Shown here one piece after another: positions 23,199-61,428 of a stretch of 64,000 bases of DNA. The translations under genes were made by a program, and so were the position numbers. The notes below the pieces were generated by a model. The model searched no databases. It saw only the letters and a list, made by a program, of their open reading frames with translations, and was not told the DNA's origin. This DNA comes from Spirochaetaceae bacterium (GTDB lineage Bacteria > Spirochaetota > Spirochaetia > DSM-2461), in assembly GCA_051531975.1 (NCBI GenBank), contig JAOPTT010000016.1:128221-192220 (forward strand), read 5' to 3'. The stretch's first letter is position 1. Every line of letters begins with the position of its first letter.

Positions 23199-24314
23199 TT
23201 AGTTATTATTAAATCTTAATATAAATATATTACTTTTATTAGTTAATCCTTTAAGTTTTACCTTTTTCTTTTTTAATGAAATTGATCTTTCTAACAACAG
23301 TTGTTCTATACCAGAATCTTTGGAAACTTTCTCTGAAATTAGAATCTGGTTATTTTTAGCTTCATTCTGTATTCTTGCAGCAATATTAATAGTTTGACCA
23401 AAATAATCGATACGTTTATTTAATGTAACCATTATTGTAGAGCCCATATGGATTCCCATTTTAACTAGAATCTCCCTCTCACTATCTAACTTTGTATCAA
23501 ACTCTTTAAATCTTTCTCGTATCTCAATAGCAGCTAAAGTTGAATCAGTTGGTTTTTTGAAGGATGCCATTACAGCGTCACCAATAGTTTTTATTACAAT
23601 ACCATTATATTTTGCTATTATATCAAAAAGTATATGGAAGTGCTCTCTAATTAGACGGTATGCTGTAGCATCTCCAACTCTTTCGTATAGAGCTGTGGAA
23701 CCTTTAATATCAGTAAATAGTATTGAGATGTTTTTAATTTTTAGAGACTGATCAAAAGGCAGGTTGTCATCGTCGAATAACTCCTTAAATGATTCTATAT
23801 GTATACAATCAATTCCAGATACAAATGTCTGACTTCTAAGATATTTAGCTAGTTCTAGTTTCTTTTCTAATGGTGCATTAATTGCATCATTCATTATTTT
23901 TTTGTTATTTTCGAAGAATTCAGTAGGAAAATCTACATATGCCTCTGATGGTGTAAAACATATACCTATATTTTGGTCTAAAGTATTACTAAAAGTAATA
24001 CTACACATCTGACAGTTTGATTCATGGGTTACATCTGCTAACAGTTTGTGGGCTTCAGGCACTCCATTACATGATGGGCAGTGATATTGCCAATTAATAT
24101 CAACTAACTCGTTATGAGCCATTTCTATAAAACATTCTAACATTTTTCTTCTATCAATATTTAAAGTATCTGCTAAATTATGAACATTTATCTGATAAAT
24201 ATCTGATAGAGTTGCTGACTCCCCCCATGTTTTTAATTTTATATATTCTTCAGAGGTTAATAATAATTTATCTTTGATCTCATCAGTTTTGGTAAAAAAA
24301 ATATTTAATAACAA
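23199..24314 (-). CDS. Cytoplasmic adenylate cyclase with N-terminal zinc-ribbon (DUF5939-like) domain
   Basis: CPSC...CQMC; FTDIKGST, KTIGDAVMA, DYFGQTINIAAR; TTG start with SD AAGGTGG. Confidence 0.85.
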   Translation of the reverse strand: MLLNIFFTKTDEIKDKLLLTSEEYIKLKTWGESATLSDIYQINVHNLADTLNIDRRKMLECFIEMAHNELVDINWQYHCPSCNGVPEAHKLLADVTHESNCQMCSITFSNTLDQNIGICFTPSEAYVDFPTEFFENNKKIMNDAINAPLEKKLELAKYLRSQTFVSGIDCIHIESFKELFDDDNLPFDQSLKIKNISILFTDIKGSTALYERVGDATAYRLIREHFHILFDIIAKYNGIVIKTIGDAVMASFKKPTDSTLAAIEIRERFKEFDTKLDSEREILVKMGIHMGSTIMVTLNKRIDYFGQTINIAARIQNEAKNNQILISEKVSKDSGIEQLLLERSISLKKKKVKLKGLTNKSNIFILRFNNN

Positions 24315-24699: not shown

Positions 24700-25530
24700 A
24701 TGATAAAAATTGATGAAACAAAATGTACACAGTGTGAGCTTTGTGTACAATCCTGTACTACAGGTGCAATACAACCATTAGATTATAGTGTTACTATGTC
24801 AAAATGCATGGGGTGTTCACACTGTATGTCAGTATGTCCTACGGATGCTGTCACCCAATTTGGTGAAACTGGTGAGTATATTTCAGACCATAATATATCT
24901 CCAGAAAACTTTGAAAACCTAGTATATGCTAGAAAATCCATTCGGAATTATAGCAATAAAGTAATTGAAAAAGAGACACTAGATCAGTTTTTAACTTTAT
25001 TACAATATGCACCAACAGGAACTAACTCTCAACAAACTTATGTAACAGTGCTTACTGATGAAAAAAAGATTGAAAAATTTGCATTTGAGATGATTAGCTT
25101 TTTTAAGAAGTTAGTTAAAATTATATTTAACCCAGTAACATATATATTTATGTTACTTTTTAGTGGTAAAGAGAAAACTGAAAAGATGTTCTCATATAAA
25201 CGAATGTTAAGCGGGGCATCAGGAAATGATGACTTTTTAACATATAAAGCGCCATTAGTTGTAATTTTTCATGCATCCCCAGATGCTTCAACCCCTGAAA
25301 TGGACTGTAATATTCAGGCCTCATACGCTAGTTTACACGCTGTAACCCTCGGACTTGGAACATGTTTTAATGGTTTTATTACAATTGGTCTTAAAGCAAA
25401 TAAAAAACTTAAAAAAGAACTTGGAATTCCTAAAGATCATAAGGTATATAGTTCTCTCTTAGTTGGTTATCCAAAGTTAGATTATAAGAAAAGAGTAATC
25501 AGAGAAGAATTAAAAGTTAATATGGTTTAA
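24700..25530 (+). CDS. Nitroreductase family protein with N-terminal 2x[4Fe-4S] ferredoxin domain
   Basis: CTQCELCVQSC and CMGCSHCMSVCP; RKSIRNY, APTGTNSQ, LGLGTCFNG. Confidence 0.9.
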   Translation: MIKIDETKCTQCELCVQSCTTGAIQPLDYSVTMSKCMGCSHCMSVCPTDAVTQFGETGEYISDHNISPENFENLVYARKSIRNYSNKVIEKETLDQFLTLLQYAPTGTNSQQTYVTVLTDEKKIEKFAFEMISFFKKLVKIIFNPVTYIFMLLFSGKEKTEKMFSYKRMLSGASGNDDFLTYKAPLVVIFHASPDASTPEMDCNIQASYASLHAVTLGLGTCFNGFITIGLKANKKLKKELGIPKDHKVYSSLLVGYPKLDYKKRVIREELKVNMV

Positions 25531-25565: not shown

Positions 25566-26255
25566 TTAATCACCAACTCCAAAATCTGTATTAACCCATA
25601 ATACATCACATTTTGGTTCTAATTCTAACCACTTATACTCATCCTGGAACCATTGTATTAGTTCTGGGTCGGGTTTAATCATTGTTGAGTTGGCTATATA
25701 AATATTAACAGTAAAATGTTCAAAATTATCCATAGCAAGTTGAATATCACTTTTTATCATCTCTTTAGTCTGTCCTAAAACACCTGGCATCAGACATACG
25801 GAGTCGAAGTAGCTTTTTAATTCTGCAATTGAATTGTGTTTAAAACCTTTAACTAAAACGTTTTCTCTAAAATCTGTATCAAAGGTTTCAAGCCCTGTTT
25901 TTATTATTGTTTTTACTCCAAAGAAGTCTCTAATGGATTTTATTCTGTTTTTGTACATCCAGTGAGACTCAAGAAAAATAGTATGTATATTCTTTTCATC
26001 AATAATTTTTTTGATTAAACCTAGAGTAGCTTCCGGTAGTTCAAAGATATTACCTGAGTTAATGACCTCTAAAACTCCAAATTCTCCGGTAATACTGCTT
26101 AAAACAGAGGTATTTAATATATGGTTCGATTCTTGGTCTACAGAGTTATCAGTTATATAATCGCAAAAGGTACACTTTCCCCATTTACATGGACTGCCTT
26201 TTAAAAGCACAATTTCCCTTTTAGTTTTATTCGTTATCTTACTATATCTATTCAT
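25566..26255 (-). CDS. queL: Short radical SAM protein, queuine lyase QueL-like
   Basis: Atypical CX4CX2C motif (C23-C28-C31); REIVLLK, EVINSG, ESHW, GLETFD, NTDFGVG resemble clostridial QueL as I recall it; divergent from yhhQ and a preQ1 riboswitch. Confidence 0.75.
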   Translation of the reverse strand: MNRYSKITNKTKREIVLLKGSPCKWGKCTFCDYITDNSVDQESNHILNTSVLSSITGEFGVLEVINSGNIFELPEATLGLIKKIIDEKNIHTIFLESHWMYKNRIKSIRDFFGVKTIIKTGLETFDTDFRENVLVKGFKHNSIAELKSYFDSVCLMPGVLGQTKEMIKSDIQLAMDNFEHFTVNIYIANSTMIKPDPELIQWFQDEYKWLELEPKCDVLWVNTDFGVGD

Positions 26256-26258
26256 CTA

Positions 26259-26291
26259 TTGCATTTTATCGTAATTATCTATACATTACAA
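26259..26291. promoter_or_regulatory. Overlapping divergent sigma70 promoters for queL-like (-) and yhhQ (+)
   Basis: Plus strand TTGCAT(26259)-17-TACATT(26282); minus strand TTGTAA(26291)-17-TAAAAT(26268-26263). Confidence 0.55.
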
Positions 26292-26312
26292 ATCGCTGAA
26301 AAACTTATCAGA

Positions 26313-26349
26313 CGCAGTTCGTAACCATCCTGCGAAACAAAACTAGGAG
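26313..26349 (+). ncRNA. preQ1-I riboswitch (type I-like)
   Basis: P1 CGCAG/CTGCG, loop TTCGTAACCATC, A-rich tail AAACAAAACTAG running into SD AGGAG; directly upstream of yhhQ. Confidence 0.92.
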
Positions 26350-26355
26350 TCAATA

Positions 26356-27072
26356 ATGGATAATTTATTAATTTTTTTAATCTTTGCACTGTTTAACTTT
26401 GCATTGATAGCAGTAGCTTACCGTTTTTATGGTAAAAATGGTCTATTAGGGTATATTATATTAAGTGTAATTGCCGCTAATCTACAAGTAAACAAAGGTG
26501 TTATCTTCAATTTTGGTCTTTTTGAATTAGAAGCAACACTAGGGAATATCATGTTCGCTGGTATCTTTTTAGCAACCGATCTACTAAACGAGAAGTATGG
26601 ATTAAAAGCAGCAAGAAATGCAGTTGTTATTTCAATTTTTGCTAACGTATCTTTTGTTTTAATTATGTTTATTTCAACACTTTTTAAAGGTTTAGAGTAT
26701 AGTCATGATTTTAACGAAGCATTAAAACTCTTTTTCTCTATAAATGGAGGAACTTTTAAGGCTGTCTTAGTTGGGAATATTGTTTATTTTATCAGTCAAA
26801 GTTTAGATGTATATATTTATGCAAGGATAAAATCATGGAATAGTTCAACTAAAACTTTGTGGATCCGAAACAATGGTTCAACATTTATATCCCAGTTTGT
26901 AGATTCTGTATTAGTTACTATAGGTTTTGCTTTAGTTGGTATCTTTCCAATGGAGATAGTCATTTCAATAGTTACTACAACACTGATTGTAAAATATATT
27001 GCAGCTATTATCGATACACCATTTTTATATTTAATGAATCTTATAAAACCAGTAGACAAATCCAACATATAA
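26356..27072 (+). CDS. yhhQ: Queuosine precursor transporter (YhhQ/VUT family)
   Basis: ANLQVNK, LGNIMFAGIFLATDLLNEKYG, SQSLDV, LWIRNNGSTFISQFVDS, DTPFLY. Confidence 0.92.
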   Translation: MDNLLIFLIFALFNFALIAVAYRFYGKNGLLGYIILSVIAANLQVNKGVIFNFGLFELEATLGNIMFAGIFLATDLLNEKYGLKAARNAVVISIFANVSFVLIMFISTLFKGLEYSHDFNEALKLFFSINGGTFKAVLVGNIVYFISQSLDVYIYARIKSWNSSTKTLWIRNNGSTFISQFVDSVLVTIGFALVGIFPMEIVISIVTTTLIVKYIAAIIDTPFLYLMNLIKPVDKSNI

Positions 27073-27074
27073 TA

Positions 27075-27107
27075 AAATAGACTTATACTAAAACTATGAG
27101 TCTATTT
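27075..27107 (+). terminator. Putative intrinsic terminator after yhhQ
   Basis: AAATAGACTTATA-loop-TATGAGTCTATTT followed by a T-rich tract. Confidence 0.6.
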
Positions 27108-27175: not shown

Positions 27176-29041
27176 ATGACTTTAAAAAAATTATTTAAGT
27201 TTGGAATTGGTGGTTTAATCTTTCTATCCATAAGTTATGTCGTTTTAAGTGGTGCAAATATGCGAATTACCAAAGGTGTAAATGATAAACTCTCTGAGAG
27301 ATTTTTAGCCTTTAGTATTGCTGATGAGTTTCGACATACATCTATGGATCTTACTAGATTTGCAAGAACATATGCAGCTACTGGTTTACAAAAATATTCA
27401 GATGATTATTGGGCTATAGTAAATTGGAGAGGTGGTAAAGCTCCTAGACCCTCAACAGTTCATAAAGAACTTATGCCTAATGAAACAATCCCTCAAAGTG
27501 AAATAATGAAGCAGATTGGATTTACAGATGGTGAATTTAAAATGCTTGAAGATATTGGAAAGATGTCTAACGACCTTATTAATTTAGAAGACCAGGCAAT
27601 GAAAAGTATTAACAAAAAAAAATATGTTGCTGGGCCTGAAAAAATCCTTCCTGGGGAAGAATATAACGAATTTGCAGTTAGAATATTATATAGTGATCTA
27701 TACCATGTGGAAGTTTACAAAATTTGGGGTACTGTTAATGAGTTTGTTGCAATTTTAGATGAACGTATTAATGGAGAAATCCAAGTCTTAAAAATAACTG
27801 GTGGAATATTATCAGTATTAACTTATATCATTTTAGTTATAATTATTTTTGCTGTAGTTTATATAATTAACTATATTCTAAAAAAACTTCTAGGTGGAGA
27901 ACCTGAAGAAATAATGAATATTGTTACTAAAGTATCAACTGGTAATTTGGATATAGCATTTGATAAATTAACTGCATTAGGGATATACGGAAGTATGAAA
28001 AATATGTGTATCAAACTAAAAAATGTTATATCTGAAACAAAAAATAGCTCCGAGGAATTAGAAGAAATAGGAGAATCTTTATCAGCAAATGCTGAGGAAT
28101 CAAGTGCATCGTTAGCGCAAGTAACTACTAACTTAAGTTCTATTAACGGTCATTTTCAGGAACAATACAGTAGTGTTGAGAGTGTAACATCTGCAATAAC
28201 TGAGATAACAAGTAATATTGAGTCCCTAAATGAATCAATAAACAAACAAAACTCCCAGATAAATGAATCATCAGAATCAATAGAAGGAATGGTAAAATCT
28301 ATTGAGGATGTATCTTCAAATATGGATGAGGTTCATAACTCTATGGGAGATTTAACAGCTGCAAGTGTTACTGGTCAAAAGAATATTGATACTAGTTCAA
28401 ACCAAATTAATACCGTATCTGAAGAATCAAAAAAACTAATGTTAACAAATCAGGTAATTAGCTCAATAGCAAGTCAAACAAACTTATTAGCTATGAATGC
28501 TGCAATAGAGGCAGCCCATGCGGGAGAAACCGGTAAAGGTTTTAGTGTTGTTGCAGATGAAATTAGAAAATTAGCAGAATCAACAACACAACAGAGTCAT
28601 GAAGTTGCTAGCATATTAAAACAGATGGATTTTCTAATTTCAGAAATTGTGAATAGTTCAGACGACACCGTTCAAAGTTTCAAAGTAATTCAGAGTTTGA
28701 TTAAAACTGTTAGCGAAAGGGATGATGAAGTCCGTGATGCTATGAGTATTCAGAGAAAGGAATCTAGACAGGTTTTAGAATCACTTGGAACTATGAGTCA
28801 AATAACCCAAACTGTATTAGGTGGAGCCAATGAGATTAAAATTGGTAGTAACCTTGTATTAGATGAAGTACTTAATTTAAAAGAGATAACAGCCAAGAGT
28901 AGTTCTAGTATTTCTGATATAACCACTAGCACCGAAGAGATTAATATGGCAGTAGAAAATGTAACTGAAATGAGCCTAAGAAACAGAGAGATGGTAAAAA
29001 AAATAGCAGAAGAGATGGAGTATTTTACTTTAGATTCATAA
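27176..29041 (+). CDS. Methyl-accepting chemotaxis protein
   Basis: Two TM helices; signalling tip [38 protein letters not shown]. Confidence 0.95.
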
Positions 29042-61229: not shown

Positions 61230-61260
61230 TATATTTTAAGAATAAATAATTTCTTTATAT

Positions 61261-61340
61261 AGGCTTCCCTACGACAGTATTAACTGTATCAGGTTCAAAG
61301 GGTCAGATTTAACTTCTCAGCCTGTTGGCTCCCCTAGCAT
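61261..61340 (-). ncRNA. TPP riboswitch (THI box)
   Basis: Minus strand CTAGGGGAGCC...GGCTGAGA...GACCCTTTGAACCTGATACAGTTAATACTGTCGTAGGGAAG upstream of the thi operon. Confidence 0.96.
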
Positions 61341-61428
61341 TAAAAGCAGAATAAAGAGTTTTCATAATTATTACAATAGGTGTGCAAAAAAAAATATGAT
61401 ACATTAAAGAAACAAGAAGGGGAAAATA

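Follow-up and report, generated by a model that had tools for sequence, protein, structure and literature searches.

How does a marine spirochaete that apparently lacks the genes for making queuosine precursors obtain them, and why should a radical S-adenosylmethionine (SAM) gene and a transporter gene in its genome share one short control region with a preQ1 riboswitch? This question is raised by a locus in a 64,000-nucleotide stretch of DNA, hereafter the window, from a Spirochaetaceae bacterium (assembly GCA_051531975.1, contig JAOPTT010000016.1, positions 128,221 to 192,220). The locus comprises queL, encoding a putative queuine lyase, yhhQ, encoding a transporter of the QPTR family, and a preQ1-I aptamer between the two. 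It probably forms a self-contained cassette for indirect queuine salvage, in which product feedback acts on uptake only. Its features, in coordinates of the window, are as follows.

25566..26255, minus strand: queL, queuine lyase orthologue of 229 amino acids with the radical SAM motif C23-x4-C28-x2-C31 (open reading frame translation and homology)
26256..26307, no strand assigned: shared divergent control region, promoters presumed
26296..26311, plus strand: P0-like hairpin (CUGA...UCAG) directly 5' of the aptamer, within the minimum free energy (MFE) fold
26308..26352, plus strand: preQ1-I aptamer, class I type I (RF00522), with P1 formed by 26313-26317 and 26330-26334
26345..26349, plus strand: Shine-Dalgarno sequence AGGAG within the 3' tail of the aptamer, 6 nt upstream of the ATG at 26356
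26356..27072, plus strand: yhhQ/QPTR of the "type A" subtype linked to queL, 238 amino acids (family models and linkage)
27075..27107, plus strand: terminator-like hairpin after yhhQ, with a 13-bp AU-rich stem, a 7-nt loop and a U-rich tail (fold)

The start codons of queL and yhhQ are separated by 100 bp (26256-26355), and the two genes diverge head to head. An earlier note, made from the sequence of the window alone, had described a CX4CX2C gene of 229 codons and a YhhQ gene at this distance, and both open reading frames (ORFs) and the spacing were confirmed. Its wording "back to back" was wrong; its own title reads "divergent".

The relay would proceed as follows. Type A YhhQ would import the queuine base, and perhaps preQ1 too. 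QueL would remove the cyclopentenediol of queuine, leaving preQ1, as expected of an orthologue of the lyase. A Tgt of the preQ1 type would insert preQ1 into tRNA, on which QueA and QueH would rebuild queuosine. Once accumulated, preQ1 would bind the leader aptamer of yhhQ, which is of class I type I. Judging from the geometry of the leader and from the aptamer family, the pseudoknot would then take in the Shine-Dalgarno-bearing tail and lower the translation of yhhQ. Since queL is transcribed divergently, only uptake would be under product feedback and the lyase would not. The data behind this reading are the gene identities, the gene complement of the genome, and the conservation and linkage of the three parts; from these we infer what YhhQ transports, which reaction QueL catalyzes, which ligand the aptamer binds and that binding turns the switch OFF.

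The 229-residue protein aligned from end to end with PDB entry 6p78_A, which its depositors named "Queuine lyase" (query residues 1-229 to chain residues 23-251, E 3e-79). It is identical to the product of Clostridioides difficile queL (locus L047) at 135 of 229 positions (59%), with no gaps, and the C. difficile gene belongs to a queK-queT-queL operon preceded by an RF00522 aptamer. The cysteine triad C23/C28/C31, whose spacing matches that in the 6p78 alignment, and 59 further columns were invariant in all 21 aligned homologues. For these reasons the protein is assigned as an orthologue of QueL, and lyase activity is predicted from the orthology. In trees built from QueL proteins only, with no non-QueL outgroup, the window protein fell in a 12-row clade with a support of 98/95 (7 Spirochaetota and 5 Bacillota; tree of 26 proteins), which adjoins further Bacillota, and a quick tree of 81 rows also placed it among QueL proteins including that of C. 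difficile. The earlier note had called the gene QueL-like and had proposed a comparison with characterised QueL by profile or phylogeny; the structure match, the identity to the C. difficile protein and the grouping in the trees agree with its view.

It should be considered whether the protein has diverged from QueL and catalyzes another radical SAM reaction on a 7-deazaguanine compound, for example as a relative of RaSEA. No match was found in a Pfam search of the protein, and the sole NCBIfam match was RaSEA (TIGR01210; 39.6 bits, E 3.5e-10, residues 12-144); the libraries searched contain no curated QueL model. However, the RaSEA score is far under the cut-off of 212 bits, the protein has 229 residues against the 313 positions of the model, and its context is bacterial. 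The gapless identity to C. difficile QueL, the match to the lyase structure and the position inside a well-supported clade of the QueL tree all argue against another reaction, and the genomic context is queuosine salvage throughout. A diverged activity is therefore regarded as very unlikely. QueL and RaSEA both act on side chains of 7-deazaguanines. The weak but significant resemblance, confined to the N-terminal half of QueL, hints at a common ancestry of radical SAM 7-deazaguanine enzymes.

The rest of the pathway was sought in the window genome (5.46 Mb, 98.5% complete). The genes tgt (501 bits), queA (400 bits) and queH (192 bits) are present, whereas queG was below its cut-off (48 bits versus 200). 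Neither queC nor queF was found; queE was not among the genes searched. The earlier note had asked for tgt, queA and queG or queH to be looked up, and for an absence of queC, queD, queE and queF. The former were found as stated, with queH in the place of queG; the absence held for queC and queF, whereas for queD a QueD/PTPS homologue exists. Based on the missing queC and queF, the organism is predicted to be unable to make preQ0 or preQ1 itself. Neither queT nor a gene for an inosine-uridine (IU) nucleoside hydrolase, the QueK family, was found in the window or in the whole genome, in agreement with the earlier remark that no QueT or QueK lies nearby.

The named relatives of the Tgt of the window genome are nearly all Spirochaetales, which marks the host as a spirochaete, in line with the assumption of the earlier note. 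This Tgt was aligned to the Zymomonas mobilis TGT. It has Cys at 158 and the motif GGLSVG around 233. Queuine-inserting TGTs read GG[LS][AS]G, with no Val, and the E. coli type reads GGLAVG (PMC11570991; this and the papers below are cited from those parts that were available). With the pocket Val kept, the window genome's Tgt is assigned to the preQ1 type, and queuine would have to be converted before insertion. If the Tgt instead inserted queuine directly, as in Chlamydia trachomatis, queL would be dispensable or a remnant. Indeed, a queuine-carrying YhhQ is known from the direct route of C. trachomatis (bioRxiv 10.1101/2023.12.05.570228). This possibility seems almost negligible: besides the retained Val, the genome has intact queA and queH genes, whose products have a role only once preQ1 is in the tRNA, and queL is likewise intact and conserved in all four genomes of the genus (the window's counted in).

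The same picture was obtained for the taxonomic family of the window genome, for which 38 genomes were compared (G000-G037, the window's own counted in). No convincing queC was found in them, with matches of at most 27 bits that cover the first ~60 positions only, and queF was above its cut-off in none of the 38. YhhQ is present in 37. Because no convincing queC and no queF above the cut-off were seen, the whole family appears to depend on salvaged preQ1 or queuine.

The arrangement of the locus recurs in distant organisms. Species-representative genomes were scanned for QueL, giving at least 585 relatives, and the neighborhoods of the best 80 QueL loci were classed. A yhhQ divergent from queL was seen in 17 of these 80, which belong to Spirochaetota, marine Bacillota (e.g., Vallitaleaceae and Oceanirhabdus) and one Mycoplasmatota; in locus L014 the two genes are 1.5 kb apart. 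The order queK-queT-queL was found in 27 loci, queT-queL in 8 and yhhQ in another position in 2. The other 26, some of them cut at contig ends, had none of these arrangements. In the family, 8 of the 38 genomes carry queL, and in all eight the gene is transcribed away from a type A yhhQ with 76-85% identity to that of the window; a ninth match, with 30% identity, is not an orthologue. A metagenome scan with YhhQ also gave nine loci with at least 71% identity. Of these, the eight that could be assessed all have the aptamer core and a queL in divergent orientation, the ninth being cut 279 bases upstream of yhhQ. Across 26 loci, pairs with more similar QueL proteins also have more similar YhhQ proteins (r 0.83 between the pairwise identities, with none of 2000 permutations as high), a correlation to which relatedness alone would contribute.

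Exceptions to this arrangement were seen as well. In L099, a metagenome contig, queL is followed on the same strand by a 55%-identical yhhQ, and the strict aptamer core was not found there. Three Francisella loci (L044, L063 and L076) encode QueL orthologues (58-59% identical) with no queuosine-salvage gene beside them; the neighbors in L044 are a gene similar to pyridoxal/hydroxymethylpyrimidine (HMP) kinases and an LpxD-like gene. The Francisella proteins join a Mycoplasmatota QueL in the quick tree, a join that was flagged as a meeting of long branches.

The aptamer between the two genes was matched by RF00522 (PreQ1) at 26308..26352 (+) with 39.7 bits, a marginal score with respect to the gathering score of 39 (E 1.5e-4 for the window). 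It is the single RF00522 match in the 5.46-Mb genome. The nucleotides U26318 and U26319 after the 5' strand of P1, and U26328 and C26329 before its 3' strand, correspond to the UU and UC that mark type I aptamers of class I (PMC11625349). In aptamers of this type, two preQ1 molecules stack and are bound cooperatively, and occlusion of the Shine-Dalgarno sequence is indirect (PMC11625349). Only 3 nt separate the end of the aptamer from the ATG of yhhQ. This leaves no space for a terminator, and therefore control would have to act on translation initiation.

Conservation supports the aptamer beyond its score. The core CAGUUCG..ACCAUCCUG then AAAACUAGG is present in all 17 divergent loci. In an alignment of 18 sequences, 16 of them distinct, every one of the 80 cells of the 5-bp P1 is paired (100%), and both partners have changed in two of the five pairs (C-G to U-A twice, G-C to C-G once). 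None of 500 shuffles reached the covariation score of P1, 0.143, and slid controls pair in 22-59% of cells. The loop and the tail are invariant in all 18 sequences and thus give no covariation to read for P2. The MFE fold of the yhhQ leader was uninformative (z -0.45), as expected for a pseudoknot. The preQ1-I aptamer that the earlier note had seen between the genes is thus upheld, with a marginal family score backed by the conserved core and by P1.

Within the family, ~121 candidates per genome were scored with RF00522, the one preQ1 riboswitch class searched. In 8 of the 9 carriers of type A yhhQ, a match stood immediately before this gene; elsewhere there were just two weak ones, of 23-24 bits. 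For comparison, in loci of the C. difficile type the aptamer stands before the first operon gene: of 19 loci searched, 10 contain queT, and 9 of these showed it. At the Rfam gathering threshold, none of the 17 divergent loci was matched (all 17 and 2 others were searched). The threshold thus misses the aptamer variant in L008-L024 and L030, and since it does so in most carriers, such riboswitches and cassettes are probably under-annotated. By eye, a P0-like hairpin is also found at the same position in L009, L010, L013, L021, L022, L024 and L088. Its sequence varies among the spirochaete loci with the pairing kept, and it is not obvious in the clostridial loci.

The product of yhhQ matched PF02592 (Vut_1; E 3.1e-36, 125.5 bits versus a cut-off of 27.2) and TIGR00697, "queuosine precursor transporter" (131.6 bits versus 50.95). 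It was far below the equivalog of the E. coli-type preQ0/preQ1 transporter, NF008406 (37.7 bits versus 252). Two kinds of YhhQ are found in the family. Type A, the window's kind, occurs in nine genomes, namely the window's and eight others with copies 76-85% identical to it. Type B is the ordinary YhhQ of the family, carried by most of its genomes and 37-41% identical to the window's. Three genomes (G017, G018 and G020) carry both types together, which suggests that the two have different substrates. That type A goes with queL while type B is retained beside it is the pattern expected if type A carries queuine. From its linkage to queL, type A YhhQ is thus predicted to import queuine, and the subclade is a good candidate for a queuine-specific QPTR. 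It should be mentioned that the window genome encodes a second, distant COG1738-like ORF (G000:C2:501355-501849, minus strand), of 205 amino acids and 28% identical to the window YhhQ (E 1.7e-14).

In 4 of the 17 divergent loci (L012, L017, L020 and L030), queK follows yhhQ, so that a yhhQ-queK operon lies behind the aptamer and is divergent from queL. A cytoplasmic hydrolase needs imported queuosine, and for this reason the YhhQ subtype of these loci may also import the nucleoside queuosine.

Several observations weigh against the proposed relay. The genome has one QueD/PTPS homologue, which stands outside any que operon, with a Mur-ligase-like gene on one side and a D12 methyltransferase on the other. 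A search for Qng1 (PF10343) was empty, but it was uninformative, as the control matched in no genome, and an alternative queuosine hydrolase is possible. The Rfam score of the aptamer is only 0.7 bits over the threshold, and in all nine relatives tested with an E-value threshold the aptamer, at its expected place, scored below the gathering score, at 27.0-38.9 bits. The canonical pairs of the P2 pseudoknot were not derivable by hand. The characterized E. coli YhhQ carries preQ0 and preQ1 (PMC5372724). Finally, the clearest counter-evidence to queuine import by type A YhhQ comes from G017 (99% complete; locus L088, G017:C1:258500-263000): the aptamer and type A yhhQ are kept, a cNMP-binding gene occupies the position of queL, and a search of all but 1038 bases of the genome gave no queL. 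Type A YhhQ thus appears to have a use that does not depend on the lyase, such as preQ1 import.

The last two points, together with the fact that preQ1 riboswitches commonly regulate yhhQ and queT (PMC11625349), lead to another explanation: the transporter would import preQ1 only, QueL would use queuine from another route or from turnover of the cell's own queuosine-containing tRNA, and the two genes would be pathway neighbors without a relay. Against this explanation, no other known transporter of queuosine precursors was found, with queT missing and the second COG1738-like match only 28% identical, and no hydrolase that would free queuine from the cell's own queuosine nucleotides was found, the Qng1 search being uninformative. 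Type A yhhQ and queL are very tightly linked, both in the metagenome loci (8 of 8 assessable) and in the family (8 of 8 queL genes), and the three genomes with both transporters have kept the ordinary type B beside type A. The yhhQ-queK operons, whose hydrolase depends on imported queuosine, also speak against import of preQ1 alone. This explanation is considered unlikely, and import of queuine by type A YhhQ, followed by its conversion by QueL, is preferred.

The cassette can be compared with the salvage systems already described. In C. difficile, the queK-qrtT(queT)-queL operon behind a preQ1-I riboswitch serves indirect queuine salvage (Yuan et al. 2019, as cited in PMC11477304 and PMC11130926), and control of QueL-based salvage by a preQ1 riboswitch is thus already published (PMC11477304). 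The spirochaete shares with it an orthologous QueL (59%), a host without de novo synthesis, the preQ1-type Tgt route and a class I aptamer before the uptake gene. The differences are as follows. The transporter is YhhQ/QPTR, whereas that of C. difficile is an energy-coupling factor (ECF) S-component; no QueK adjoins the pair or was found in the spirochaete genome; and queL is divergent and outside the riboswitch-controlled transcript, whereas one riboswitch precedes queK-queT-queL in C. difficile. The hosts also differ, C. difficile being one of the gut Bacillota and the present one a marine spirochaete. The sole DNA run that contains the stretch is labelled as a marine metagenome, and no RNA run is listed for it.

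In C. trachomatis, likewise, a COG1738/QPTR protein has been proposed as the carrier of the queuine base in an organism without queCDEF. That organism has a queuine-type Tgt and a direct route, whereas the spirochaete has a preQ1-type Tgt together with QueL, QueA and QueH, for which reason its route would be indirect. The yhhQ of E. coli belongs to the same transporter family and is likewise preceded by a class I preQ1 aptamer acting on the Shine-Dalgarno sequence (PMC11625349). It differs in its transporter subtype, as seen from the NF008406 scores, and in its aptamer, which is of type III whereas the spirochaete aptamer has the marks of type I. Unlike E. coli, the spirochaete has no QueF that could be found, so preQ0 would be useless to it.

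The earlier note was not aware of this wiring being described in spirochaetes. Neither a queL-yhhQ cassette nor a spirochaete QueL was described in the literature searched, the founding paper and a 2024 review being outside its coverage, and the presence/absence tables in PMC11130926 (sections 2.1 and 2.2) may already contain such genomes. To this extent the statement holds, but its novelty was overrated. All three parts belong to known families, and salvage of this logic with preQ1 feedback is published; it is the arrangement that is new, and the novelty is modest. What is new relative to the characterized case is the transporter family, the lack of QueK, the divergent layout, the hosts and the distinct YhhQ subclade linked to QueL. 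QueL-based indirect salvage, characterized only in C. difficile, would thereby be extended to free-living marine spirochaetes and clostridia, where a second conserved architecture is found: a QPTR stands in for the ECF transporter, and the lyase lies beyond the reach of the riboswitch. Relatives in the family supply a type B paralogue for comparison with the candidate queuine QPTR. The known logic of queuosine salvage is unchanged, and the gain is an incremental one for specialists.

With respect to evolution, at least one transfer of queL between phyla is implied. A single spirochaete clade was not rejected by the approximately unbiased (AU) test on the tree of 26 (p-AU 0.351). Several transfers, and their number and direction, are therefore not established by the tree alone. 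As a tentative proposal, which might or might not hold, type A QPTR would serve specifically to import queuine, and also queuosine in loci where it is followed by queK. The transporter, QueL and the type I aptamer would have evolved together, forming a portable cassette of ~1.6 kb that crossed between marine Bacillota and Spirochaetota. If this is true, queuine would be a traded micronutrient among free-living marine anaerobes, beyond animal hosts, and the genomes having both type A and type B YhhQ would be a natural experiment for mapping the determinants of substrate choice. In the window genome, the base composition of the cassette equals that of its flanks (GC about 0.30-0.31), and all four genus genomes carry the cassette; it is therefore not a recent arrival there.

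The cassette was taken to end at 27107, where the terminator-like hairpin at 27075-27107 ends. This hairpin has a folding energy of -13.2 kcal/mol (z -3.81), and none of 200 shuffles folded equally well. Its G-C pairs are too few for a simple terminator scan, which did not detect it. In the shared control region (26256..26307), TTGCAT-17 nt-TACATT was spotted by eye on the plus strand. A scan for promoter consensus gave candidates on both strands, with 11 found against 10.3 expected by chance; the matches being not above chance, the divergent promoters cannot be placed with confidence.

No further gene near the pair was conserved beside queL in the relatives, including the Fer4-nitroreductase, the cyclase and the chemotaxis genes described here. 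The first, at 24700-25530 (+), encodes two 4Fe-4S ferredoxin motifs fused to a nitroreductase domain; it is convergent with queL and ends 36 bp away from it. This ferredoxin-like neighbor had been considered as a dedicated reductant of QueL and was dropped, since the gene is not conserved beside queL in relatives. The cassette is flanked by an adenylate/guanylate cyclase with a DUF5939 N-terminal domain at 23199-24314 (-) and by a methyl-accepting chemotaxis protein (MCP) at 27176-29041 (+). Elsewhere in the window, a thiamine pyrophosphate (TPP) riboswitch was matched by RF00059 at 61249-61345 (-), with 75.1 bits versus a gathering score of 54.3.

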